Part shown: positions 2,852 to 16,880 of the stretch, in pieces
Position numbering within the stretch: position 1 is the first letter of the stretch
How the letters are laid out: the number at the start of each line of letters is the position of its first letter
Assembly: GCA_965229705.1 (NCBI GenBank)
Contig: OZ245922.1
Span: forward strand, 974,763 to 1,006,762
DNA: 32,000 nucleotides
Reading direction: 5' to 3'
From: Candidatus Saccharimonadota bacterium
GTDB taxonomy: Bacteria; Patescibacteriota; Gracilibacteria; BD1-5; UBA6164
Notes under the pieces: model-generated
What the model saw: the letters and a program-made list of their open reading frames with translations, nothing else
The model's database searches: none
Told to the model about the DNA's origin: nothing
Translations under genes and position numbers: made by a program

Positions 2852-5110
2852 ATGTCAAAGGAAAGCAAAATCATACGACCAAAGTTTTGGAGCTTTATGC
2901 TCCCTCGAAGCATAATGCTTGTGATCCTCACCATTATTATGCTATTTGTGAGTATATGACTCATGATGGAAGATATGCTTATAGGAGCAGTAGTAGCTCT
3001 TGTGAGTTTTGTCATAGTATCCTTTCTCTACTATCTTCTCTATGTGATGTACACAAAAGAGTCATATCACTTCGAAGGAAATAAAATAGTGAGATACTAT
3101 GGAACACTTTTTTCTGATAATCATCTGGAGTTACAGCTTCATCGAACAGCAATCCTGCGTCTTACCAGGCCATTTCTTTTACAAATATTTTTTTGAACTG
3201 GACATATTGCTATTCAGGCAGCAGGAAGTTCGGGAGCAAGATTTTTTCTCCAACATATAGGGAATCCTAAAGAGGTCTATGAAGAAATTCAATGATACCT
3301 GCAAGAATCGTGATTTCACCTCAAGAAAGAAAAACTCGTCCAAGAGGCTCGTCCTCATCCACTTGGAGTGTTTTGAGAAATAGGAAAGAAACTCGCAGTA
3401 ACAATATTTTTTACGGCGTATATTCTTGGTTCAATCATATATGAGTTTTCTTCACAGCTCAGTTTTGCTGGATTAGGATTTCTATCATATTTTAGCAGCT
3501 GAACTCTCATCTTGATCATATTGGGAGTATATATCTCTTTGAGCTATATGGATCTCAAGAGAAGGCGTTACAACATATATGAAGATGCAGTTGAGTTTTA
3601 TGAGTGATTTCTTACAAAAAGATATAGTGTGATTCCTATGGAAAATGTGAGCGATGTAGAAAACACGCAAAGTTTTCTCTCAAAGATTTTTGGCTTACAT
3701 GATATAAAAGTGAGTTGTGCATGATGAGAAAACGAAGTGCTATTTAAAAATATGACGCAGGGAGAAAAGATGATAGAAAATCTCAAATTTCTTAAAAATG
3801 AGATTATCCCAAAAGAGAGAGCAAAAAGTATCCCAAAAGACACTCGTTCTCTTATCAGCTTTATCGATAAGATTGAGGAGCCTCTAAAGTACGATGAGTG
3901 ATTTACCGGAGAATATAGGATGAAGTATATCAGATCTATCGCGCCATACCTGCTCTTTCTTATTCCACCACTTACCCCTGTGGGTATTGGGATGATTGTA
4001 TGGGAAACTCTTAGAGTAAAATTTACTGATTATAGTATCACTCCGTCAAGCATTGATAAGAGATTTCATTTTCTCTCAAACAAACATGTGAGCTACAGTA
4101 TTGAGAAGATTACAGGAATGATAGTGAAGAGAAATGTCATTGATATTATTTTTGGGACATGCTCTGTGAGCTTTTTGTCTCTTGGTTCAAGTGGAACGCT
4201 TGATTTTTCCAATATTGCATATAGCGAAGATATTGAGAAACATATGAGGCAAAAGGTCTGAATATATCTTCCTAAAGAACAACCTATTCTTCCTATTCGG
4301 TTTGGATATATAAACTTTTTTAAGGCAAATATTTTTTGGTCATGGTTTCTACCACTTTCTTTACCGATATATGCTTATAAGCTCTTTTTTTATTCACAGC
4401 GATTTTACAAAAATATATTTTTTGATGAGTGTATTTGTGCAAAAAAGGGAATTTTTATGCAAACAACTTTTTACGCTCTTTCGAGAAATATCAAATGAAT
4501 CACTTCTGTGAAGTATCCTCTTACTCAGGTAGGACAACTGAACTTGAATGTTGCAGGAGAGAAAATGATTCAAAGCAAAAATAAAAAAGGCTCATGACAA
4601 TGAATTATGCTGTTATCTCATAAAATACATATTCCATATCTAGATAACGTACAAGATGCTCAGGATTATTTTGATACGAGATTTTTTGGGACATGATTTT
4701 CTCGTGAAATGGTGGTTGAGACTTGACAGTCAGTAAAAAATACGCTTTTCTCTCTTAGTATTCCTTTTGCGATATTTATAGCATACATTTTTAGTCAAGG
4801 TATTATGTGACTTCTTGTATGTATAGCGCTTTTGTTAGGGTGCGCATGAATGATAGTATGGGTAATTCGTATGAGGTATTTTCGTTTGGAGAAGTCGAGA
4901 GTGATTTTCGGATCATGAATTATCTATAAAAGACGGCAGTCTATCTTGTACTCAAAATTGAACTTTATCGAGCTCAATAGATGATTTCTCAATAAGATTT
5001 TTACAAATGGGAGTATTGGAATATATACACTTGGGAGTACTTCTCGTGAGATGACGCTCAGAGATATAGATGAGTACCAAAACTTGTATGAGCTCTTACA
5101 AACTCAATAG
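2852..5110 (+). CDS. Membrane protein with about five bPH_2 (YdbS/YdbT-like bacterial PH) repeats, 752 aa
   Basis: One frame runs from ATG 2852 to TAG 5108-5110 and joins ORFs 2963..3196 and 3920..4261 through many TGAs. A pattern recurs: a hydrophobic hairpin followed by Y-x-(F/I)-...-G-(F/I)L-...-(I/V)P-...-I-...-FG-...-(I/L)-...-G. Examples are YNIYEDAVEFYE[G]FLTKRYSVIPMENVSDVENTQSFLSKIFGLHDIKVS and YFRLEKSRVIFGS[G]IIYKRRQSILYSKLNFIELNR[G]FLNKIF. Confidence 0.6.
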
Positions 5111-5164
5111 GGAAATACTAAGAAACTGCGAAAAAACTTCGTATTCTAGACGGTTTTTCCCTTG

Positions 5165-5560
5165 TTATTCACTTCAAAGATTTTCCTCCATTCTTTGCAT
5201 AATCTCTTTTGAAAGTGAGCTTTCATCTTGCTCCATGAGGTGTAGAAGAACTTCGCTTGATAGGACAATGACCTCAAGTTCTTGAGTGGCAACTACGCTT
5301 GCGCTTCGAACCTCTTCACTGAGAAGAGCCATTTCTCCAAAGATATCTCAAGTTCTCATGATATGCCGTGATCCTTGGGGTGTTGATACTTCGACAGATC
5401 CAGAAAGAATAATATATCATTCCCCATTTGGTTCCTCTCCTTGAGAAATAATAGTTTCTCCCTCGAGAAATTTCTTGGTACTACTAGCGGCGATAATCTC
5501 CTCTATCACTTCGTCTTTGAGACCTTGGAATATTTTGAGATGAGAATAATAGGAACTCAT
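5165..5560 (-). CDS. Stand-alone cyclic-nucleotide-binding (CAP/Crp effector-type) domain protein, 131 aa, no HTH
   Basis: ORF 5417..5641(-) extends through two in-frame TGAs, with a third near the 3' end, to TAA at 5165. It reads FQGLKDEVIEEII...KKFLEGETIISQGEEPNGE[G]YIILSGSVEV...[G]DIFGEMALLSEEVRSASVVA, the classic cNMP beta-roll with the FGE motif. I prefer ATG 5560 as the start. An upstream ATG at 5641 would add 27 aa that look like translated AT-rich leader. Confidence 0.65.
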
Positions 5561-5816
5561 AATCTTTATATTTAAGAAATAAAAAATACTTGCTTTAGGA
5601 AATGCGGAAAAAATTCGTATTTTATCGTCAAAAACCAACATTAACTAGTACGCTTATTTCAGCCAAGTTGATTTTTCCTTGAACTACTTGTTTTTACACA
5701 TTTCTTATTTTCTATGCTTACTGTTAGTATAGGCTATATTTTTTTTATAAGCAAATAATTGCTCTGAGTATCATAATATGATACGATACTTTCAGTAGAA
5801 GTATAAAAAGAGTATT

Positions 5817-6659
5817 ATGAGTATGCAACATTTTCTTGAAACTTTGAGTGTATTTTATATTTCTCCCTCTATGATGGGGATAGTTTTTGTGATGTTGTTT
5901 CTTTTAGGAATTTCTTTTCTTTTTACGAGATTCCCTGAGAGTAACTTTTCTCTTGTATGAGATATGTTTTACGAAAAAATATTTTCTTTTTTTGATGACC
6001 TTTTATGAAGCGACTTTTCTCTTGGTACAAAAACATTTATTGTGAGTCTCTTTTTCATTATTCTTTTCACAAATATTCTTGGAATATTTTTGGATTTTTT
6101 GGCTCCTATCTTTGGTGTGAGTGAAGGGGGCTTTGTTTTGGAAAAATTTATTCGTATTCCGAGCGCTGATGTTCAGTTTAATATGGCATTAGCAATCGTC
6201 AGTATGGTACTGCTCATCTATTTACAGTTTTTAGCTCTTGGAAAAAAAGATTTTTTTCTGAGCTATTTTCCGATATATGGGAAAGGATATCTAGAATTGC
6301 AGAAGGGAAGTATGAACCATATTTTGTATTGGATCGTTTTTCCTTTGGTCAAAATTTTTGATATTCTTATATCATTTTTTCTGAGTTTTTTGGATATTAT
6401 TGGCTTGTTTGCAAAGGTCATTTCTCTGTCGTTTCGTCTTTTTTGAAATATTGTTTCAGGCGGAGTTCTCCTAGCGATACTCATAGTTGCTCTTGGGAAC
6501 TTTACGGAGTCCCTTACAAGTTTTATGGGAGGGATTCATTTTCCTGTAATACTTCCGTTGATAGTATATGCGCAGTCACTGCTTATAGCAGTGATACAGG
6601 CTCTGGTATTTTCTCTCTTGGTTGCGATATTTATGAAGGTAAGTCAGGGGGAGAATTAG
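5817..6659 (+). CDS. atpB: F-type ATPase Fo subunit a, extra copy (a1) belonging to an F1-less a/c-c/b module, 280 aa
   Basis: The frame from ATG 5817 joins to ORF 6042..6446 and onward through three TGAs. The protein is polytopic and hydrophobic. It carries the stator-arginine motif LSFRLF[G]NIVSGGVLL and the C-terminal helix AVIQALVFSLLVAIF. Confidence 0.85.
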
Positions 6660-6737
6660 GAGACAAGAGGCTACTTTTTTGCACTTATAATAAAAGTATG
6701 ATAGCATAGAAATATATTATTTCTTACACAGACACTT

Positions 6738-7187
6738 ATGGATATCTCGGCAATTTCACTTTGAGCGTCACTTTCAGTATGACTTGCAGGAATCTGAGTA
6801 GCTCTTGGTCAATCAGGACTTGCAAGAACAGCTATCGAAATGATAGGGAAGTCGCCACGACTCTCAGGAACTATGCTTATTTATACTATTCTTGGATTGG
6901 CACTTGTCGAAACAGCAATTATTTATGGACTGGTAGTAGCTTTTTCGATTATCGGAGCAACAGATGTAGGGAGTAGCCATCTTATAGGCGCTGGTCTTGT
7001 TATGGGTCTTACAGCTTTTTGAGCTGGTTATGGTGAAGGGAGACTTCTCTGCGCTGCTCTTGAAGCCGTAAATAGAAACCCAGAGAACAAGGCGCAAATA
7101 CTTCAGTATATGGTACTTTTTGCAGCACTTGTCGAGACTTCTGCTATATATGGACTGATTATTGCGATGAAACTCCTTAACGCTTAA
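6738..7187 (+). CDS. atpE: Fused tandem (double-hairpin, 4-TM) F/V-type proteolipid c-c subunit, 149 aa; both hairpins keep the carboxylate
   Basis: ATG 6738 to TAA 7185-7187, with four in-frame TGAs. Hairpin 1 reads GIGVALGQSGLARTAIEMIGKSPR...LALVETAIIYGLVVAF. Hairpin 2 reads AF[G]AGYGEGRLLCAALEAVNRNPE...AALVETSAIYGLIIAM. Each aligns position by position with a canonical c-subunit hairpin. Confidence 0.85.
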
Positions 7188-7192
7188 ATATC

Positions 7193-7660
7193 ATGCTCCA
7201 AATAGACATATACATTCTTTTTGCGCAAATAATCAATTTTTGAATTCTCTTTTTTATATTCAAAAAATATATTGCCAATGCGATGAATGCTCGAATACAG
7301 GAGCGCAGAAGAGAGCTAGAAAAACTCAAAAAAGCCGATGAACACTACGAACAAAAAATGTCTCTTGCACAACAACAAAAAAAAGAAATACTTGATACCG
7401 CTCGAGAAACAAGCTCAGCATTGATGAAAGAGTCAGAAGTGATTATACAACAAAAGGTAGGAACAATTATTGCAAAAGCCAAGCAAGAAGCTCTTGCTAT
7501 TTTGGAGAGTGGTAAACGCGAGCTGGAAAAAGACCGTCTTTCTATGCTCTCTCAGATGAAGTCTCATATTATTGATGTCTCACTCAAACTGAATGAGAAA
7601 ATGTTTGGAAAATGAAAAACCAATAAAGAGTTTTTAGAAAAAGAGTTAGAGAATTTATAG
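7193..7660 (+). CDS. atpF: F-type ATPase Fo subunit b, extra copy (b1), 155 aa
   Basis: ATG 7193 lies 5 nt after the c-c stop. One N-terminal TM segment (IYILFAQIINF[G]ILFFIF) is followed by a long charged coiled-coil region. The C-terminal block LKLNEKMF matches the LKLNEKLF of the second b gene. Two in-frame TGAs; stop TAG 7658-7660. Confidence 0.8.
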
Positions 7661-7708: not shown

Positions 7709-7851
7709 GAGTGGAGGTTGGTGTGAACTCGAAGATTTTTTCTTCTTTACATACTCATAAATCCAATACAATAAAAAGTAAGATATATTCTCTTGCTTTT
7801 TCATGCTCAAAATCTCTCTCAAAATCTTTGTAATAATTCTCTGAAATTTAT

Positions 7852-7879
7852 TTGCGTTTCTCACTCTTTGACTTATACT
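7852..7879 (+). promoter_or_regulatory. Candidate sigma70-type promoter for the main atp operon
   Basis: TTGCGT (7852-7857), a 16-nt spacer, then TATACT (7874-7879), about 30 nt upstream of the small leader ORF. The call rests on pattern match only. Confidence 0.3.
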
Positions 7880-7910
7880 TGGGCGCGTTTTTAATGCAGA
7901 GGCACAATGG

Positions 7911-8018
7911 ATGATAATCATGATGGTTCTTTCCATACTTCCCCTGTACTGGTTTCTCATCAGCGTTATGAGAAATTTTCGAAAAGAATCAGAATTATTA
8001 TATAAAGATCCAGAGTAA
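7911..8018 (+). CDS. Small hydrophobic ORF (35 aa), possibly an AtpI/AtpZ-like operon-leader membrane peptide
   Basis: It reads MIIMMVLSILPLYWFLISVMRNFRKESELLYKDPE*. Its TAA (8016-8018) directly abuts the atpB ATG (8019), which suggests translational coupling. I recognise no family-level motif. Confidence 0.3.
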   Translation: MIIMMVLSILPLYWFLISVMRNFRKESELLYKDPE

Positions 8019-8858
8019 ATGGCTGAAGCATATCCTGAAAAAACAGATACCACTCCTATTGGAGAAACCTCTCACGCGCAGTCACATCATGAGTGACCAC
8101 ATATTCCTTTAATACAAGGAGAGACTGTGTATGGTCCGATTTCTAATACGACACTTACCAGTTTTATATTTTTGGTTATTGTCTTTTTTGTTGCTATTTC
8201 AGCAAAGAAAGCCCTCCTCAATAATAAAAAATCAAAACCCAAGCTCTTTTTTCTCACTTTTGTAAAATTTTTTGATGATCAGCTTCGAGATGCTTTTGGA
8301 AATAAGAAAATGGCAAGAGCCTATTTTCCCCTCATCGTAGGAATGTTTTTTCTCATACTTTTTGGAAATCTCTTTTGACTCCTCATAGACTGGTTTGGTC
8401 TTTCAGTTATGCCAAATATCCTTTACTACTTGAGACCTATGCATAGTGACATGAATACTACTCTTGTACTTGCGAGTATTACCGTTGTAATACTTCTCAC
8501 AATACAGATAAAAACTCATGGGACAGGAGGAATGCTCAAATCATATTTATGGAACTTTCAGGGAGACGGCATCATGTCAAAATGTATAAATGTCTTTGTT
8601 GGATGGCTTCATCTTATTGGTATTCCAGCGACTCTAGCATCTCTTTCTCTTCGTTTATTTGGAAATATTTTTGCGGGAATCGTTTTGATTGGAGTGATAA
8701 GTTATTTGATGGCATGAGCAACATGAGCAGTTTTTGAGATTGGAAGATTGGCAGTAATACCGTTTTGGTTTTTTGAAGTATTTGTCGCGCTGATTCAGGC
8801 GATCGTTTTTACATTTTTGATGATTGCATACTTTAAGTGAGCAAGCGAACACCACTAA
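8019..8858 (+). CDS. atpB: F-type ATP synthase Fo subunit a (a2), 279 aa
   Basis: ATG 8019. ORFs 8127..8378 and 8409..8717 join in frame through TGAs. Motifs are LSLRLFGNIFAGIVL (essential Arg) and ALIQAIVFTFLMIAYF. Stop TAA 8856-8858. Confidence 0.92.
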
Positions 8859-8927
8859 AAAGTAAGATACATATTTTCTCTTTATTTTTCAAGAAGAGAA
8901 AATATAATTTTATTTTTTATACTATAA

Positions 8928-9158
<231 letters not shown>

Positions 9159-9274
9159 ATATGCAGAAGCTTTGTGCTTCTTTGCTCTCGCTTTGCAGTG
9201 TGCTTCGCGGGATGAGTAAAAAGAATAGATGAGTTTTTACATGCAAAAAGTATTTTTATTATGTGAGCATCACT

Positions 9275-9283
9275 TGGTATAAT
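9275..9283 (+). promoter_or_regulatory. Candidate extended -10 promoter element (TGgTATAAT) in the atpE-atpF spacer
   Basis: TGGTATAAT at 9275-9283 lies 63 nt upstream of the atpF ATG, inside an unusually long 187-nt spacer. I see no good -35. Confidence 0.3.
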
Positions 9284-9345
9284 ATTTTTTACTCTGTATC
9301 TCATTATCTTTAAGTATTTTTAATAAGTAATTTATAATTGATTTT

Positions 9346-9846
9346 ATGGCAGCACAACAAGCCCAAGGACTTATAAATCTTCAATTTGTCACAGTAGAAA
9401 CATTTATTATTCAGTTTATTATACTCTTAGTAGTATTATGGGTATTGAATAAATTTGTTTTCAAACCATATCTTGCGTATCTCGATGAATGGGAGGCAAA
9501 ACAAGAAAAGGTGCAAGAAGACTATAATAACGCTGAAAAAATACTTGAAGAAAAGCGTCAACAGTGAGATAAGATGCTCGAGAATGCTCGCATGAAATGA
9601 AACCTACTCATAGAAGAGTCGGAAACACTTGCAAAACAAAAAAAGGAAAAAATACTTCTTGATGCTGAGACAGAAGCTCAAAATGCTGTAAACGCTGGAC
9701 AGAAACAAATAGAACAAGAACGCCGATGAATGCTTTCGGATATGAAAGAAAATGTTATGAACCTGGCACTTAAACTCAATGAGAAACTTTTTCAAGATGA
9801 AAAAGCCTCAAAAGATTTTATGAAAAAGCATATAGATACCCTTTAA
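9346..9846 (+). CDS. atpF: F-type ATP synthase Fo subunit b (b2), 166 aa
   Basis: ORF 9346..9567 continues through three TGAs to TAA 9844-9846. It has an N-terminal TM segment (FIIQFIILLVVLWVLNKFVF), a charged coiled coil and the C-terminal LKLNEKLF block. Confidence 0.88.
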
Positions 9847-9858
9847 TAACTGATATAC

Positions 9859-10206
9859 ATGCAATACATTGATACGCTTGATGCATCTTCCGCAACGGTA
9901 GTGCTTTGAGAACTCAAAAAATACGCTGAACTGAGAAAGAAGCTCGGAAAAAGAGGGAGAGATCTTTTTCATCGCAAACTTAGTGGTCAAAAACATCTTG
10001 TTGTAGAGCATGCGCAAAGCGTCTCTGAGGATATGGCGTGGCAGCACGCTGAGTGAGTATTTGAAAAAACTTTTTGACACAAGACAGAAAAACGGCAGGT
10101 AGTATTTGTTCCTCGATCATCTCTCAAAGGCTGAATGAAAGTATATCTTGATGATATGATGGTTGATGTGAGCTTTAAAAAAGTAGAAAAACACATGCAA
10201 AAATAA
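9859..10206 (+). CDS. atpH: F-type ATP synthase subunit delta (OSCP), unusually short at 115 aa
   Basis: The position between atpF and atpA supports the call. The C-terminal part reads VVFVPRSSLKG[G]MKVYLDDMMVDVSFKKVEKHM, which matches the delta C-terminal signature (..liGG..v..gd...D.S....l). Only about 35 aa precede the C-terminal domain. Confidence 0.6.
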
Positions 10207-10240
10207 AAAACATAATTTTATAATCTAAACAAAATAAAAT

Positions 10241-11746
10241 ATGTCACAAGATGTATTACAGTCAATTATCTCTGAAATAGAGGCAAAGATAGATTCTACT
10301 GATTTTTCTCCTGAGATTGAAAATGTTGGAGAAGTTTTTTATCTCTGAGATGGAGTTGCAAAAGTATCAGGACTAAGAGGAGCAAAATACAATGAAGTCT
10401 TGGAGTTTGATTCTGGAGCAACAGGAGTAGCTCTCAATCTTGAGGATCACTTTGTTGGTGTAGTGATTCTCTCGGGTTTTGCTAGTGTAAAAGAGGGAGA
10501 AAAAGTTACTTCTACCGGGAAAACACTTGAGGTACCAGTTGGAAAGGAGATGATAGGAAGAGTTGTTGATGCTCTTGGAAGACCGATCGATGGACTTTGA
10601 GAGATAGCTACAAAGGAGCATTATCCAGTAGAGAGAACCGCAGAATGAGTAATGGCTCGTAAGTCGGTTCATGAACCTATGGAGACAGGTATCAAGGCGG
10701 TTGATGCGCTCGTACCTATTGGACGAGGACAGCGTGAACTTATTATTGGTGATAGGCAAACAGGAAAAACACAGGTAGCAATAGATACGATTCTCAACCA
10801 AAAAGGTCAAAATATGATGTGTGTGTATGTTGCTATTGGTCAAAAAGAAGGAAAAGTATCACGAACAGTAGAAGAACTCCGAAAGAGAGGGGCTATGGAC
10901 TACACTATTGTTGTTTCAGCAGGGGCTTCAGAACCAGCAGCAATGCAGTATCTTGCTCCATATACAGGGTGTGCTATGGCTGAGTACTTTATGTACAACA
11001 GTCAGCACGCACTTATTATTTATGATGATCTCTCAAAACAGGCAACGGCGTATCGTGAAATGTCTCTCCTCCTCAGAAGACCACCAGGACGAGAGGCGTA
11101 TCCGGGAGATGTATTTTTTCTTCACTCACGACTTTTGGAAAGAGCTGCCAAACTCTCAGATGAAAAAGGTGCTGGATCTATGACAGCGCTTCCGATTATT
11201 GAAACGCAAGCAGGTGATGTATCTGCTTATATCCCGACGAATGTGATTTCTATTACTGATGGGCAGATATTTCTCGACTCAAACCTCTTTAACTCAGGAC
11301 AAAAACCAGCGATATCAGTAGGTCTTTCAGTTTCACGAGTTGGATGATCAGCGCAGATGAAAGCCATGAAAAAAAATTCTGGAACACTCAAACTTGATCT
11401 TGCTCAGTATCGTGAACTTGCAGCATTTTCACAATTTGCTTCTGATCTTGATGAGGCAACGAGAGCCCAGCTAGACAGAGGAGCTCGTATGATGGAACTT
11501 CTCAAACAAGGGCTTAATGCTCCAGTACCAGTACCAAAACAGGTATGTGCACTCTATGCGGGAGGAAAAGGATATCTTGATGGTATTTCAGTAGAAAAGG
11601 TTTTGAAATTTGAAGAAGATTTACACGCTGCTCTTGATCAGGATAAGAAAGTACTTGAGACGCTTGCAAATGAGAAAAATCTCTCAGAAAATACAGAAAA
11701 AGATCTGGTAAAGATCATAGAAAAAGTAGTTGAGTTACATAAGTAA
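10241..11746 (+). CDS. atpA: F-type ATP synthase F1 subunit alpha, 501 aa
   Basis: ATG 10241. ORFs 10400..10600, 10652..11347 and 11357..11746 are in one frame, joined by TGAs at conserved Gly positions (RPIDGL[G]E, AE[G]V, SRVG[G]SAQ). Walker A is GDRQTGKT; also [41 protein letters not shown]. Confidence 0.97.
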
Positions 11747-11751
11747 AAAAC

Positions 11752-11883
11752 ATGTTCAATTCTGAAAAAGGAATCGTTGATTTTGACATAGATGGTAATG
11801 TTGTAGAGATAGAAATGTTTTGAGTAAAGAAGACTTTTGCGAAAAATAATATTTTTCTTGATCAAAAAGAATTAATAGCATAA
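11752..11883 (+). CDS. Short ORF (43 aa) resembling the C-terminal half of a DUF2283 (YuzE-like) protein; possibly a gene remnant
   Basis: It reads MFNSEKGIVDFDIDGNVVEIEMF[G]VKKTFAKNNIFLDQKELIA*. The block G-I-V-D-F-D-x-D-G-N-V-V-x-I-E resembles the DUF2283 core (vvvDfDe.G.vvGIEil). It starts 5 nt after the atpA stop. The resemblance is recalled from memory, not searched. Confidence 0.3.
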
Positions 11884-11890
11884 ATGTAAA

Positions 11891-11946
11891 CTTTTTACTT
11901 TTATCTTTTAACCTTAGACTTTCCACTTTAAACTTTCCACTATTGA
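11891..11946 (+). repeat. Array R1: four tandem 14-bp units (consensus CTTTyyACTTTAAA)
   Basis: The units are ctttttacttttat | cttttaaccttaga | ctttccactttaaa | ctttccactattga. The last unit overlaps the -35 of the cassette-1 promoter. Confidence 0.8.
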
Positions 11947-11969
11947 GAAATACAAAAAAAATATATAAT
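11943..11969 (+). promoter_or_regulatory. Candidate promoter of TA cassette 1
   Basis: TTGAGA (11943-11948), a 15-nt spacer, then TATAAT (11964-11969), with the antitoxin ATG 27 nt downstream. The whole block 11932-11999 recurs almost identically at 12472-12539. Confidence 0.5.
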
Positions 11970-11995
11970 AGAGGCAGTATTTTCTAAAAAAAATT

Positions 11996-12193
11996 ATGGC
12001 AACAATACAAGTTGAGTTACCTGAACAAGTACAAGATACATTTAAAATATCAGAAGAGCCAATAACAACAGAAGACTTTCTGACTCGTCTTGAACAAGCA
12101 GAAGAAGACATGTGGATTGATATAGAGTTAGATGAACCAATATCTATGCAAGAATTTTCCAGGATGCTAAAAAAAGATATTTATGGTTCCTAA
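11996..12193 (+). CDS. Putative antitoxin of TA cassette 1, 65 aa, acidic
   Basis: It reads MATIQVELPEQVQDTFKISEEPITTEDFLTRLEQAEEDMWIDIELDEPISMQEFSRMLKKDIYGS*. The N-terminus (xIxVxLPExV) is reminiscent of a ribbon-helix-helix beta-strand. The 3' end overlaps the toxin start by 11 nt. It is paralogous to ORF 12536..12730, sharing W-x-D-(I/V)-x-(L/F)-DEP-(I/V)-x-x-x-EFS-x-x-LKK-x-I-x-G. Confidence 0.6.
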   Translation: MATIQVELPEQVQDTFKISEEPITTEDFLTRLEQAEEDMWIDIELDEPISMQEFSRMLKKDIYGS

Positions 12194-12422
12194 ATGGCTG
12201 AAAATTATTCAAAAATCACCATATGAATCTCAACTACAAAAAGTTTCTGAGAATATCGTTTTAGGGGATTTTCGATGATTAGATATTAAGAAGATACGAT
12301 GAAAGTTTTGAATATATAGGTGTAGAGTGTGAGACTATAGAATTATTTTTGAGGAGAGAGTAAATGGTGAATACAAAATTCTCCACATAGGAGGAAGAGG
12401 AGATATTTACAAAAATATATAG
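12183..12422 (+). CDS. RelE/ParE-family type II toxin, 79 aa
   Basis: Missing from the standard-code track because it has four in-frame TGAs. It reads MVPKWLKIIQKSPYESQLQKVSENIVLGDFR[G]LDIKKIR[G]KF[G]IYRCRV[G]DYRIIFEERVNGEYKILHIGGRGDIYKNI*. The YR-x-RVGDYRII(F/Y)...I..I..RgdiYk signature is the RelE/ParE hallmark, and its invariant Gly is a TGA. Confidence 0.8.
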
Positions 12423-12426
12423 TATA

Positions 12427-12485
12427 CTTTCCACTTTAAACTTTCTACTTTAAACATCTTTTAACTTTTCGCTTTCCACTATTGA
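12427..12485 (+). repeat. Array R2: four 14-bp units with a 3-nt hiccup
   Basis: The units are ctttccactttaaa | ctttctactttaaa | (cat) cttttaacttttcg | ctttccactattga. The last unit again overlaps the -35. Confidence 0.8.
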
Positions 12486-12508
12486 GAAATACAAAAAAAG
12501 TATATAAT
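12482..12508 (+). promoter_or_regulatory. Candidate promoter of TA cassette 2
   Basis: TTGAGA (12482-12487), a 15-nt spacer, then TATAAT (12503-12508). The geometry matches cassette 1. Confidence 0.5.
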
Positions 12509-12535
12509 AGAGACAGTATTTTCTAAAAAGAAATT

Positions 12536-12730
12536 ATGGTTGTAATGGAGGTAGAGGTTCCACAAAAAATAGCAGAATCGTTTTTTGAATCAAAACAAAG
12601 AATTAGCTATGCTGACTTGAGGAAAAAAGAACAAGAAATCGAGGCGACAGAGTGGACGGACGTTATGTTTGATGAGCCTGTCCCTATAGAAGAATTTAGT
12701 GTCTACCTCAAAAAACAAATACATGGTTAA
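12536..12730 (+). CDS. Putative antitoxin of TA cassette 2, 64 aa
   Basis: It reads MVVMEVEVPQKIAESFFESKQRISYADLRKKEQEIEATEWTDVMFDEPVPIEEFSVYLKKQIHG*. It is a paralogue of 11996..12193 and overlaps the downstream toxin ATG (12723) in the same way. Confidence 0.6.
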   Translation: MVVMEVEVPQKIAESFFESKQRISYADLRKKEQEIEATEWTDVMFDEPVPIEEFSVYLKKQIHG

Positions 12731-12960
12731 AAAATGGCAGAAAACGATAAAAAAAGCTCCGAATAAAGAAAAAATTAATGAAGTAATTGATAAGATATTT
12801 AGTACAAGATTTTCAGGAATTAGATATCGATATACTTCATGGAAAAGAAAAGCACTTTCGTTGTAGAATATGAGATTTTAGAATCATATTTTCCAAGAAA
12901 AATGGAAAAATAGAGATAGAGGGAGCCGGACATAGATGAGATGTTTACAAAAATATATAG
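12723..12960 (+). pseudogene. RelE/ParE-family toxin copy 2, disrupted by an apparent +1 frameshift in a T-run near 12798-12800
   Basis: The N-terminal frame (ATG 12723) reads MVKKWQKTIKKAPNKEKINEVIDKI, colinear with toxin 1, but runs to TAG at 12864. The +1 frame from about 12799 reads LVQDFQELDIDILHGKEKHFRCRI[G]DFRIIFSKKNGKIEIEGAGHR[G]DVYKNI*, ending at 12960. Deleting one T from ATATTTAG restores a full-length RelE-like ORF colinear with toxin 1. Confidence 0.65.
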
Positions 12961-12964
12961 TATA

Positions 12965-13048
12965 CTTTTAACCTTAGACTTTCCACTTTAAACTTTTAAC
13001 TTGTAACTTTAAGCTTTAAACTTTTAACTTATAACTTGTAACTTCCCG
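12965..13048 (+). repeat. Array R3: six tandem 14-bp units ending at the atpG start codon
   Basis: The units are cttttaaccttaga | ctttccactttaaa | cttttaacttgtaa | ctttaagctttaaa | cttttaacttataa | cttgtaacttcccG, and the final G is the first base of the atpG GTG. The first 32 nt (12965-12996) are identical to 11905-11936 in R1. Confidence 0.85.
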
Positions 13049-13953
13049 TGGCAAACGCAAAAGAAATAGGACGAAAAATTTGAAGTATTAAAAATACCTC
13101 AAAAATCACCAAAGCAATGGAACTCATCTCAACAGTGAAGATGAAGAAAGCTCAAGACCTTGCAATGCAAAAAAAAGACTTTGTGATAGAAATGCTGAAA
13201 GTATTTTCTCGTATTGAAGGTTTTTTAGAAGATTTTTCATATTTTCAAAAATATGAGAGTCAGAAAACTCTGGGGATCATTATCACTTCAAATAAAGGTT
13301 TATGTGGAGGGTATAATGTAAATGTTTTAAAAAAAGTACATGAGTACACAAAACAAAATCCAGATGAAGATATGGACTATATCAGTCTTGGGAAAAAAGC
13401 AGCAGCCTTTGTAACTCGAACAGGAAATACGCTTCATGCAGATTTTTCTCCAGAGTATACAGATAATATTGATACACGCTTTGTAAAATCTCTCACGCAG
13501 ACTATGTATGATGCCTATCTTTCTGGAAAATATGGGAAGGTTGTAGTGTTTTATAACTACTATGTCAACTCTATTAAACAAATTCCGGTTGCCCGAGAGT
13601 TTCTTCCTATTGATGCTCAGGGAGTACGAAACTATCTTGAGAGCATTATTGATGACGAAAAGGTTCTTGAAGATATAGGAAGCGAGACTATAGATTATAT
13701 TATAGAACCAAGCTCAGAGTCTATTGCTGATGATCTTATACCAATGATTCTTGATATGATGTTTTATGATATTTTACTTCAGGCAAAAGCCTCAGAACAC
13801 TCAGCAAGAATGGTTGCGATGAAAGCAGCAAAAGACAATTCTCAAAAAATTGCGGATATGCTCACACTGCAGTTTAATAAAGCCCGCCAAGGACTCATTA
13901 CTAGAGAAGTATCTGAGATAGTCGCAGGTGTTGAATCTCTCAAGGATACCTAA
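13048..13953 (+). CDS. atpG: F-type ATP synthase F1 subunit gamma, 301 aa, GTG start
   Basis: Starting at GTG 13048 the N-terminus reads (M)ANAKEIGRKI[G]SIKNTSKITKAMELISTVKMKKAQ, the canonical gamma N-terminus. The C-terminus reads ...ARQGLITREVSEIVAGVESL. ORF 13117..13953 is the part downstream of the TGA. Confidence 0.93.
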
Positions 13954-14022
13954 CAATTCTTGAGAGAAGTATTTGAAAAACACGATACAAGAAAGATTTT
14001 ATTTTTTTACACATATCTTCGT

Positions 14023-14475
14023 ATGAAATATATAAGCATAGCTCTCAAGATGATGATAAATATCGCGTTATATTGTATATATGTGATTTGTATTTCTTTT
14101 GTTTTTTCTTTCTTTTTCCCTCTAGCACTCAGACTTATGGGAAAAAATATTCCACACTACGCAGATCCAGTTTTTGTCAAAATCCAAGTATTTATTGCAG
14201 CTCTTGTACTCCTATTGTCCCTTATTTTTCGTAAATATCTCTACACTTCCTGTAAGGATAAAAAATATCTTTCTGCAAAAAATCAGAAATCTAGTAGTAA
14301 TCCAACAACTACTCAAGCTCATAATCATCAAAAAACAGTGAAAAAAACGGTAAAAACACCAGCAAAGAAAACTCCTGCAAAAGCAAAAAAACCAGTAAAG
14401 AAAAGAGCAAGTTCTCAGGCAAAAACAAAAAAAGAAGATGATATGAAAATATATGTAGAAAAAGAAATAAAATAA
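14023..14475 (+). CDS. Hypothetical membrane protein with a Lys/Pro/Ala-rich basic tail, 150 aa
   Basis: ATG 14023 lies within ORF 13960..14475. There are two predicted TM helices (INIALYCIYVICISFVFSFFF and VFIAALVLLLSLIF). The tail reads KTVKKTVKTPAKKTPAKAKKPVKKRASSQAKTKKEDD, resembling a histone-H1-like AKP repeat. I recognise no family. Confidence 0.5.
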   Translation: MKYISIALKMMINIALYCIYVICISFVFSFFFPLALRLMGKNIPHYADPVFVKIQVFIAALVLLLSLIFRKYLYTSCKDKKYLSAKNQKSSSNPTTTQAHNHQKTVKKTVKTPAKKTPAKAKKPVKKRASSQAKTKKEDDMKIYVEKEIK

Positions 14476-14558
14476 TTTCGGGATTTATTCAAATCCTCAA
14501 GTAAAAGAATTATTCTTTTGTTTGATCTTTTGAATAAATACACATACAAAAAGGAATA

Positions 14559-14607
14559 TCGAGACCGGTCTCGAGTTCCAAATATTTAGTAACAGGAGAC
14601 CGGTCTC
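14559..14607. promoter_or_regulatory. Pair of GC-rich perfect palindromes sharing the core GAGACCGGTCTC; candidate operator or RNA structure upstream of rnhA
   Basis: TCGAGACCGGTCTCGA (14559-14574, a 16-bp perfect palindrome) and GAGACCGGTCTC (14596-14607) have centres 35 bp apart. They lie 13-61 nt upstream of the rnhA ATG in otherwise AT-rich DNA. Confidence 0.4.
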
Positions 14608-14619
14608 TCTCAAGAAAAG

Positions 14620-15018
14620 ATGTTACTACGAGTATATACAGATTGAGGATCTAGAGGGAACCCATGAGTGGCAGGCCTAGGAGTGTATATAGTGGACAAA
14701 GAGGGAACACCTCTTGAGAGACGCTATAAGTATCTCGGAACGACGACCAATAATATCGCCGAGTATACAGGGGCATTCTATGGAATAAAAAGAGCTCTTG
14801 AGCTCTGAGCTACACAGATAGAACTCTATATGGATTCAAAACTGGTTATATCGCAACTCAAGGGAGAGTGGAAGGTAAAAGACGCTGAGCTCAAAAAAAT
14901 TTATTTAGAGATTCTCCAGTTAGTATGAGACAGAGATGTGAGCTATAACTGGATCCCAAGAGAGCAAAATACTGAGGCAGATGCACTCAGTAATAAAGCT
15001 ATGGACGAAAAGATCTAA
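14620..15018 (+). CDS. rnhA: Ribonuclease HI (type 1 RNase H, short archaeal/actinobacterial-like form), 132 aa
   Basis: Absent from the standard-code track because it has four in-frame TGAs. It reads MLLRVYTD[G]GSRGNP[G]VAGLGVYIV...TNNIAEYTGAFYGIKRALEL[G]ATQIELYMDSKLVISQL...WIPREQNTEADALSNKAM. The D-E-D-D catalytic positions are present (YTDGG, AEY, MDS, EAD). Confidence 0.8.
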
Positions 15019-15045: not shown

Positions 15046-16437
<1,392 letters not shown>

Positions 16438-16448
16438 TAATAAACACT

Positions 16449-16880
16449 ATGAAACTTAGCGTATTGTCATTTTCAGGAGAAAACTTTTTTCATGAAAATA
16501 TTCTCTCTGTGACACTCATGACAAAGTCATGAGAAATAACCATTCTCGATAATCATGCTCCAATGATTGCATTGATTGAACCTTGTGTTCTTTATACGAA
16601 ATATAAAGATGAAAATGGTATTGAGCAAAGGGATGATTTTGCAATAGGAACGGGTGTAGTCGAGATACATAATTCGAGCGTAAAAATCATGTCAGATATG
16701 CTTATTGATGTGGAAGAGGTAGATCTTGATCAGGCGCAACTTGCAAAAGAGAGAGCTCTAGAACTTATGGAGAAATACAAGCACAGAAAAGATAGGGTTG
16801 ATATGGAAAAGTTTATTGAGGCTGAGGATCAGCTCCTCAAATCTATAGCGCAGCTCAAGCTCTATGATCTGAAAAAATAG
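16449..16880 (+). CDS. atpC: F-type ATP synthase F1 subunit epsilon, 143 aa
   Basis: ATG 16449 follows atpD. It reads MKLSVLSFSGENFFHENILSVTLMTKS[G]EITILDNHAPMIALIEP, the epsilon beta-sandwich motif (G..gIl..HaP.i..L), followed by a helical C-terminal domain. Confidence 0.9.

Follow-up and report, generated by a model that had tools for sequence, protein, structure and literature searches.

Two putative RelE-type toxin-antitoxin cassettes form a strain-variable insert between atpA and atpG of a Gracilibacteria ATP synthase operon

We analysed a toxin-antitoxin (TA) locus in a 32-kb stretch of a Gracilibacteria genome (the window; coordinates are window positions unless another locus is named, and the insert and its flanking genes lie on the + strand). 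The locus occupies the 1301 nucleotides (nt) at 11747-13047 that separate atpA, encoding the F1 alpha subunit of ATP synthase, from atpG, encoding F1 gamma. An initial annotation of this DNA had described ~1.3 kb between the two genes, holding TA cassettes co-oriented with the operon. The gene boundaries bear out the separation and the orientation, and the cassettes recur in independent assemblies; the observation is thus confirmed, and the interpretation that went with it is partly supported. We conclude that the insert is probably strain-variable accessory DNA composed of two RelE (RelBE-like) type II TA modules, housed in an insertion-tolerant spacer of the Gracilibacteria atp operon. Below, A1 and T1 denote the antitoxin and toxin of cassette 1 (type 1), and A2 and T2 those of cassette 2 (type 2); L001 to L043 are loci of other assemblies with which the window was compared, and P-numbers (P0017, P0020, P0021, P0025) are protein records.

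The insert consists of a gene remnant, two cassettes and three arrays of a heptamer, ACTTTNN. Array 0 (11887-11941; ~8 units including degenerate ones, period 7/14 in Tandem Repeats Finder (TRF)) lies 5′ of cassette 1, which comprises a promoter and 5′ untranslated region (UTR) block (11942-11995; TTGAGA at 11943-11948, a 15-nt spacer and TATAAT at 11964-11969), the putative antitoxin A1 (11996-12193; 65 amino acids (aa), isoelectric point (pI) 4.05, net charge -12) and the intact RelE-type toxin T1 (12183-12422; 79 aa, pI 9.8), with an 11-nt overlap between the two genes. Array 1 (12426-12478) separates this unit from cassette 2, which has the same layout: a promoter/5′ UTR block (12481-12535; TTGAGA at 12482-12487, a 15-nt spacer and TATAAT at 12503-12508), the intact putative antitoxin A2 (12536-12730; 64 aa, pI 4.6) and the RelE-type toxin T2 (12723-12960), overlapping by 8 nt. 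Array 2 (12964-13044; 11.6 units, TRF score 93) forms a leader right before the atpG start codon. The cassette unit repeats with a period of ~539 nt, and no further copy of A, T or DUF2283 is present elsewhere in the 32 kb. The description of each cassette as an acidic open reading frame (ORF) followed by an overlapping toxin gene therefore holds for the layout of both; the T2 frame, on the other hand, is shifted here.

The remnant at the head of the insert (11752-11883) retains the C-terminal 42 aa of a DUF2283 protein behind a new ATG and includes one TGA codon read as glycine. It scored 18.7 bits against PF10049 (E 0.002; cut-off 23), covering profile positions 29-48 of 49, and shares 55% identity over 42 aa with the complete 66-aa DUF2283 protein of L001 (58.6 bits), so that the DUF2283 fragment named in the initial annotation is real. 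The copy in the window is truncated and probably a pseudogene; in strain L040, from which the window diverges strongly at this point, it is still more decayed.

The gene content of the region depends on the genetic code. Read with code 11 it breaks up into a mosaic of short ORFs, and with TGA as a sense codon long genes run across the window. TGA and GGG are exchanged between the window and L001 at two toxin positions, one with GGG in the window and TGA in L001 (..L-G-D-F..) and the other with TGA in the window and GGG in L001 (..K-F-G-[IM]-Y..). Together, atpA and atpD contain six in-frame TGAs, which in a code-11 Omnitrophota homologue correspond to G (four) or D (two) and never to W. Over the genes of the window, TGA supplies 30% of glycine codons. 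On these three lines of sequence evidence we conclude that TGA codes for glycine in this host. T1 holds four in-frame TGA codons, which bears out the claim that the toxins are invisible under code 11. We rejected the idea that TGA-rich toxin genes act as a genetic-code firewall or translation throttle, since TGA makes up 4/9 of the glycine codons of T1 as against 30% over all window genes (Fisher p = 0.25).

Both toxins had been assigned to the RelE/ParE superfamily. In a PF05016 profile search T1, at 24.0 bits, exceeded the gathering score of 23, whereas T2 reached 17.5 bits after frame repair, and 19.0 bits in its intact L040 version; by this search the assignment stands for T1 and falls short for T2. 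The two toxins are 47% identical over their full length. A profile built from five toxin sequences matched archaeal RelE proteins in the PDB, namely aRelE of Pyrococcus horikoshii (P. horikoshii; 1WMI_A, 3e-6) and RelE3 of Methanocaldococcus jannaschii (M. jannaschii; 3BPQ_B, 7e-5), and had a weak, non-significant match to Rv2866 of M. tuberculosis (E 0.38). As a structural model we used, in place of T1 itself, its relative P0021 from the same family (39-40% identical), for which the predicted local distance difference test score (pLDDT) was 85.9 and the layout of helices (H) and strands (E) was H-H-E-E-E-E. Its template modelling scores were 0.81 with 3BPQ_B, 0.79 with another RelE structure, 0.74 with 1WMI_A, 0.71 with 9G12_B and 0.68 with 2KHE, and the fold search returned RelE first, followed by YafQ, YoeB and E. 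coli RelE. The five toxins found at the junction share six invariant residues (R46, R48, R53, R72, Y76 and K77); in the wider family the first five are also invariant and K77 is nearly so. They align with R58, R60, R65, R85, Y89 and K90 of aRelE, among which R85, R58 and R65 are reported to be important for aRelE activity (Takagi et al. 2005). Given the PF05016 score, the profile matches to archaeal RelE and the RelE-first fold ranking, the toxins appear on this evidence to be RelE-type and not ParE-type.

In T2 the run TTT at 12798-12800 contains one T too many, which shifts the reading frame. As written, the gene yields a 47-aa truncated product (stop at 12864-12866) and an out-of-frame C-terminal part ending at 12960; the source record annotates the gene as a 57-aa fragment (P0020). 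In L040 the run is TT, and the gene there encodes an intact 78-aa toxin, with 98.7% identity to window T2 and this single 1-nt indel. The type-2 toxin is intact in L003 as well.

The antitoxins are harder to classify. An assignment to the RHH, Phd or RelB families is not supported: A1, A2 and an alignment of the 13-member family had no match to these or any other recognised antitoxin or DNA-binding family in Pfam, NCBIfam, the PDB or PADLOC. The only recurrent match was to DUF3631, below the cut-off (best 20.8 versus 24 bits) and in 5 of 13 members. A match of the antitoxin profile to DAHP synthase in the PDB (7e-4) was discarded as spurious, as it covers 37 residues at the C-terminal end of an enzyme of 262. 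The family is small: of 1.84 billion cluster representatives searched exhaustively with HMMER, 12 reached E <= 1e-3. A metagenome scan with the antitoxin alignment gave 123 pattern matches, 0 of them confirmed. A1 and A2 are 34% identical to each other. A1 is 82% and 52% identical to the ORFs in the antitoxin position of L001 and L009, respectively; A2 is 56% identical to the L003 antitoxin and differs by one aa from that of L040. The A1 model, of low confidence (pLDDT 64), has helices at 10-15, 25-38 and 51-63.

The pairing of an A-family with a T-family gene occurs in seven places: the window (twice), L001, L002, L003, L009, L040 and, away from atp, L037. More distant T-family toxins have partners of known types. 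The partner in L041 is MazE/AbrB (25.9 bits, gathering score 24.7), that in L043 is DUF6364/RHH (29.2 bits, gathering score 27.3), and that in L042 has an AbrB-like N-terminus similar to the one in L041 but under the Pfam cut-off (17.2 versus 24.7 bits). The RHH-type (DUF6364) antitoxin of L043 ends in VTFDEGVPAEEVLAYLQKQIHG, which is 68% identical over 22 aa to the C-terminus of A2, and its C-terminus aligns to positions 43-65 of the family (hhalign E 1.3e-4, probability 54%). These C-terminal ~23 residues are the only part of the antitoxin that resembles a recognised type, namely this DUF6364/RHH partner of a T-family toxin. The putative antitoxin role is based on the upstream, overlapping position (seen also in L037), a charge opposite to that of the toxin, the partner types of the distant toxins and the tail shared with L043. 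The arrangement suggests that the antitoxin may be modular, with a toxin-binding part of ~25 C-terminal residues and an unclassified dimerisation or DNA-binding part of ~38 N-terminal residues.

At L037 the pair is the middle member of three TA pairs in tandem (4386-6071; ParE-family, A/T-family and YafQ-family) on a contig of 24% GC in which TGA is sense. The A/T-family and YafQ-family pairs there are each preceded by near-identical promoter-bearing spacers (ttttttgattttatttaaaaata[ga]atataataaa), and the T-family toxin has eight TGA-Gly codons and zero GGN.

An assembly chimera, against which the initial annotation had cautioned, is excluded, as this TA family is present at the junction in six independent assemblies (L001, L002, L003, L009, L036 and L040). 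L001 and L002, from two sequencing runs, have a 52-aa ORF, a full DUF2283 gene and one type-1 cassette. One type-1 cassette is present in L009, and a membrane ORF with one type-2 cassette, toxin intact, in L003 (both from a genome scan). Of two ENA contigs, L036 has the 3′ end of DUF2283 and the antitoxin alone, with an altered C-terminus and the toxin gone, and L040 has the DUF2283 remnant and cassette 2 alone, with an intact toxin. At ~96-97% nt identity, L040 and the window belong by that measure to the same species. The cassettes are not a simple tandem duplicate: A1 and A2 are as divergent as given above, T1 and T2 likewise, and each type is found by itself in relatives (L001 and L009 for type 1, L003 and L040 for type 2). 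We therefore rejected a recent tandem duplication; judged by their sequences, the two cassettes are two old, divergent types. In L001 (59-408) the 52-aa ORF has no Pfam match, lies directly after atpA and overlaps the downstream full DUF2283 gene; the two may be another two-gene module.

We surveyed the atpA-atpG junction in 32 Gracilibacteria loci; the genomes nearest to the window are all Candidatus Gracilibacteria metagenome-assembled genomes, with atpA aa identities of 86-91% for the closest loci (L003-L011, L034) and 68-79% for more distant ones. The two genes are 5-40 nt apart in 19 loci, including close relatives with no cassette in which the spacing is 12-16 nt (L005-L008, L010 and L011). 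Six loci have spacers of 130-205 nt and seven have ORF-bearing inserts of 660-940 nt, so that the junction is occupied in 13 of 32. Two of the seven hold the TA cassettes of L003 and L009. The cargo of the others comprises a 307-aa lipoprotein-like ORF with a DMP19-like domain (L004, 1130-2053; 2.5e-16), a 223-aa HD-domain ORF (L031, 5293-5964; 1.3e-14) and its close homologue, also of 223 aa (L033, 5288-5959), a 265-aa ORF with no Pfam match (L029, 5200-5997) and a 283-aa ORF (L032, 5120-5971). Two of the spacers in distant Gracilibacteria (L017, 5885-5990; L024, 5930-5995) have in common a GC-rich hairpin-like element, ctctttcccctg(t/g)taaggggagagaattcaagagagaggta. Further along the operon, 28 of the 32 loci have a membrane ORF and/or an RNase H-like gene in the atpG-atpD interval; these genes were undetected in L003, L010 and L026, whose contigs end within atpG. 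The atpG-atpD intercalation is conserved and lineage-specific, and the Gracilibacteria atp operon routinely tolerates intercalated genes. Together with the recurrent occupancy of the atpA-atpG junction, this lowers the surprise of finding a TA insert there. The location had been called unusual; it is an unusual place, and a search of the literature turned up no report of a TA module inside an ATP synthase operon, but 13 of the 32 loci have something inserted at this point.

The difference between the window and L040 indicates how cassettes are gained and lost. The indel is bounded by a ~100-nt repeat of array plus promoter, and the corresponding L040 segment aligns to both window copies, which is the signature of unit gain or loss by homologous recombination. 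Divergence from L040 is mosaic along the whole operon (8026-15018). Blocks of low divergence, with 0-3 differences per 200 nt, cover atpB2, most of atpA and cassette 2; blocks of high divergence, with 10-37 per 200 nt, cover atpF2/atpH, the 3′ end of atpA with the remnant of DUF2283, and the array that precedes atpG; values for atpG lie in between (7-16 differences per 200 nt), and the proportion of synonymous differences (pS) is 0.02 in atpA and 0.20 in atpG. This mosaic points to frequent recombination in general, beyond the cassettes. Junction sequences are duplicated at two other loci. In L003 (5470-5512) and L009 (5347-5385) a copy of the first 35-45 nt of atpG, (G/A)TGTCAAACGCAAAAGA.ATACAACGAAAA, is fused to a -35 element before the cassette, and in L009 the 3′ end of atpA (aaaaaagtaatagaacttaataaataa) is repeated after the toxin (5890-5925). 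These duplications look like entry scars and suggest that the cassette first entered through the junction sequence or spread by recombination inside it.

The heptamer arrays are specific to the insert: the ACTTTNN pattern has 12 matches where 0.03 are expected, all within it. Arrays are confined to the window, L040 and the L001/L002 lineage, with 11.6 units ahead of atpG in the window, ~6 in L040 and 3-5 in L001 and L002. L003, L009 and L036 carry the TA family or its antitoxin with no heptamer array, and the arrays are thus dispensable for the family elsewhere. They may be slippage-prone spacers that supply homology for the gain and loss of units. As RNA, the array together with the start of atpG was predicted to be less structured than 200 of 200 shuffles (z = +2.39), so that an added role as an unstructured AU-rich atpG leader is possible.

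The promoter blocks are well conserved. That of cassette 1 is 96% identical to that of cassette 2 and 94% identical to that of L001 (atpG, 78%); TATAAT and TATTTTCTAA are invariant in five cassettes, and the cassette 2 promoter is identical to that of L040 over 65 nt (12474-12538). The spacer between the promoter elements is 15 nt in the window cassettes and 16 nt in L001, L003 and L009. A consensus promoter scan requires 16-18 nt and hence did not list the window promoters, which are nevertheless plausibly real. In 6 of 7 cassettes the stretch from the -10 box to the ATG contains a palindrome, TATTTTCT..AGAAA(A)T (it is degenerate in cassette 1 and unlisted for L036); in cassette 1, TATTTTCT at 11978-11985 forms the left arm of a small palindrome, and in cassette 2 the arms are TATTTTCT (12517-12524) and AGAAATTA (12529-12536). 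We regard this conserved palindrome as a candidate operator. No terminator-like site was found in 11500-13300, and because none lies between atpA and atpG, it is plausible that transcripts run on from atpA and that the cassette promoters feed into atpG-atpD-atpC. A DNA-pattern scan for the promoter and 5′ UTR gave nine matches, none with A, T or atp homologues, which we attribute to chance in AT-rich contigs.

These data establish the anatomy of the locus, the family and fold of its toxin, conservation at the site, polymorphism between strains and purifying selection. They fit the following working scheme, in which we infer from the sequences that the toxin is toxic, that the antitoxin neutralises it, that the modules regulate themselves and whatever influence they have on the expression of atpG. 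In each module a sigma-70-like promoter would drive a gene for an acidic antitoxin and, overlapping it, one for a basic toxin. The toxin, folded like archaeal RelE, would act on mRNA as a ribosome-dependent endonuclease. The antitoxin would neutralise it through the conserved C-terminal ~25 residues, and its N-terminal ~38 residues would mediate dimerisation and repression at the palindrome that separates the -10 box from the start codon. Cassette 2 would retain its antitoxin gene beside a toxin inactivated by the 1-nt insertion, unless the latter is a homopolymer sequencing error. Cassettes would be gained and lost by homologous recombination between the ~100-nt repeats of heptamer array and promoter that bound the units. 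With no terminator-like site in the way, transcription from the atp promoter probably runs on through the cassettes, and the cassette promoters probably contribute further transcripts that extend into the downstream genes.

Several points weigh against this interpretation. The margin by which T1 passes PF05016 is just one bit, and T2 lies under the cut-off at 17.5-19 bits. No DNA-binding domain can be recognised in the antitoxin, for which the structural model is poor (pLDDT 64). At 15 nt, the spacer of the candidate promoters is suboptimal, and they are absent from the list of the consensus scan. The T2 frameshift falls within a run of three Ts and may have arisen as a sequencing error. Finally, synonymous divergence from L001 is near saturation (pS 0.58-0.68), so that the ratios of nonsynonymous to synonymous rates (dN/dS) given below are rough.

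The cassettes might instead have been co-opted as regulators of atp, with autoregulated promoters and the heptamer leader tuning atpG-atpD-atpC; loss of antitoxin under stress would then couple the supply of F1 gamma, beta and epsilon, or the cleavage of atp mRNA, to TA activation. Consistent with this, the cassettes are co-oriented with the operon and followed by no terminator-like site, the insert abolishes the tight spacing seen in 19 of 32 relatives, the array abutting the atpG start is expanded and its RNA unusually unstructured, and the promoter block is better conserved than atpG. However, six close relatives (L005-L008, L010 and L011) manage with no cassette, L040, a strain of the same species, does without cassette 1, unrelated cargo (HD-domain, DMP19-like and other ORFs) occupies the junction elsewhere, and three loci with the TA family or its antitoxin have no arrays. 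Dispensable cargo fits these observations better than an integrated regulator does, and we consider co-option unlikely. A related proposal, that the junction is a recombinase-free exchange site at which TA types are swapped, stacked and deleted by way of the promoter block and arrays, with the promoters and leader recruited for atpG-atpD-atpC, strikes us as a similarly long shot; if it were true, F1 subunit supply would depend on the state of the TA module.

Accessory DNA with working modules must also be distinguished from decaying junk, that is, dead TA remnants kept because deletions reaching atpA or atpG are lethal. Some features have the look of decay: the DUF2283 gene is truncated, and more decayed in L040, T2 is frameshifted, L036 retains an altered antitoxin alone, and strains differ in cassette content. 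Against this, A1 and T1 are intact, with rough dN/dS values relative to L001 of 0.08 for A and 0.09 for T, equal to that of atpG (0.09); the conserved basic and aromatic toxin residues are kept across both types; the type-2 toxin is intact in L040 and L003; and the promoter block is 94-96% conserved. We conclude that cassette 1 is intact and, as judged from these ratios, under purifying selection, and that the junk explanation is rather improbable. That the toxins are ParE-type gyrase poisons and not RelE-type mRNA interferases is highly improbable: the sole Pfam match is to a model named ParE_toxin, but PF05016 spans RelE and ParE proteins alike, every significant PDB sequence match is a RelE protein, RelE, YafQ and YoeB structures top the fold search with ParE2 at a rank of at least 35 (E > 0.3), the C-terminal R-G-D-[IV]-Y-K aligns with R85...Y89-K90 of aRelE, and two wider-family relatives, P0017 (the L003 toxin) and P0025, are called RelE by their sources.

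Taken as accessory TA cargo, the insert is fairly ordinary DNA in an unusual place, strain-variable and not unique within the phylum, and it leaves the understanding of TA systems and of ATP synthase unchanged. Its interest is more specific. The F1 gene block of an ATP synthase operon can bear strain-variable selfish or accessory cargo. In TGA-recoded, small-genome bacteria of the Candidate Phyla Radiation, code-11 annotation hides toxin genes. The small, previously unannotated antitoxin family, with a tail common to an RHH-type antitoxin, would add a case of antitoxin modularity. Moreover, one cassette in L040, two in the window and none in related species make a natural comparison for the effects of TA promoters inside an essential operon.

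The surrounding operon contains two F_o gene sets in tandem (5817-7660 and 8019-9846). The first comprises atpB1 (5817-6659; 280 aa), atpE1 (6738-7187; 149 aa, with two fused c-subunit hairpins and two PF00137 stretches) and atpF1 (7193-7660). A small membrane ORF (7803-8018; 71 aa) separates it from the second, which comprises atpB2 (8019-8858), atpE2 (8931-9158; 75 aa) and atpF2 (9346-9846). The latter leads, by way of a 115-aa ORF in the delta position with no Pfam match (9859-10206), into atpA (10241-11746; 501 aa, a code-25 ORF), the 5′ flank of the insert. The 3′ flank, atpG (13048-13953; 301 aa), has a GTG start at a position that matches the start in relatives. It is followed by a membrane/Lys-rich ORF (13960-14475), an RNase HI-like gene (14620-15018; PF13456 2e-20, PF00075 6e-12), atpD (15046-16437) and atpC (16449-16880). 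The window contains no known RNA family at gathering scores, and 11600-13200 none at E <= 1. A search for a link to phages or plasmids gave no DNA match; A1 had no match and T1 only distant RelE-like matches (47-54% identity over about half its length). Anti-phage defence models (PADLOC) gave no match.

Among characterised systems, archaeal RelBE provides the best sequence and fold matches for the toxin family (1WMI, aRelE-aRelB of P. horikoshii; 3BPQ, RelB3-RelE3 of M. jannaschii). As in archaeal RelE, the toxin has fewer than 90 aa, begins with two helices, continues in a sheet of four strands and carries an R...YK motif at the C-terminus, and as with archaeal RelB the partner is a small acidic protein of ~65 aa, the DNA-binding type of aRelB being listed as unknown (PMC4803016). 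Unlike archaeal RelE, the toxins described here are smaller by ~10 aa and share only 20-28% identity with the solved structures; the antitoxin family has no detectable sequence similarity to aRelB or RelB3; and the host is a code-25 bacterium with TGA-Gly codons in the genes. The bacterial systems RelBE, YafQ-DinJ and YoeB-YefM resemble the cassettes in being bicistronic, with the antitoxin first and an overlapping toxin, in the RelE superfamily fold (matches to 4FXE, 9LEW and 7BWF) and in having modular antitoxins with a variable N-terminal domain and a C-terminal toxin-binding tail. They differ in that the ~38-aa antitoxin N-terminus found here matches no RHH, AbrB, Phd/YefM or helix-turn-helix (HTH) family.

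Two further systems are comparable in their genomic setting. In E. coli relA-mazE-mazF-mazG, a chromosomal type II TA pair is co-oriented and transcriptionally linked with core metabolism or stress genes; by comparison, the insert described here splits the F1 gene block between alpha and gamma, and its presence varies among strains of one species. Vibrio superintegrons hold promoter-bearing TA cassettes in tandem, with strain-variable content and boundary repeats. In 11700-13100 inverted repeats are short and scattered, not as in integron cassettes, and no integrase was noticed, although none was specifically searched for. The cassette boundaries here consist of direct heptamer arrays and a promoter rather than attC-like imperfect palindromes, and the strain indel, unlike those of superintegrons, is bounded by ~100-nt direct repeats, pointing to homologous recombination.

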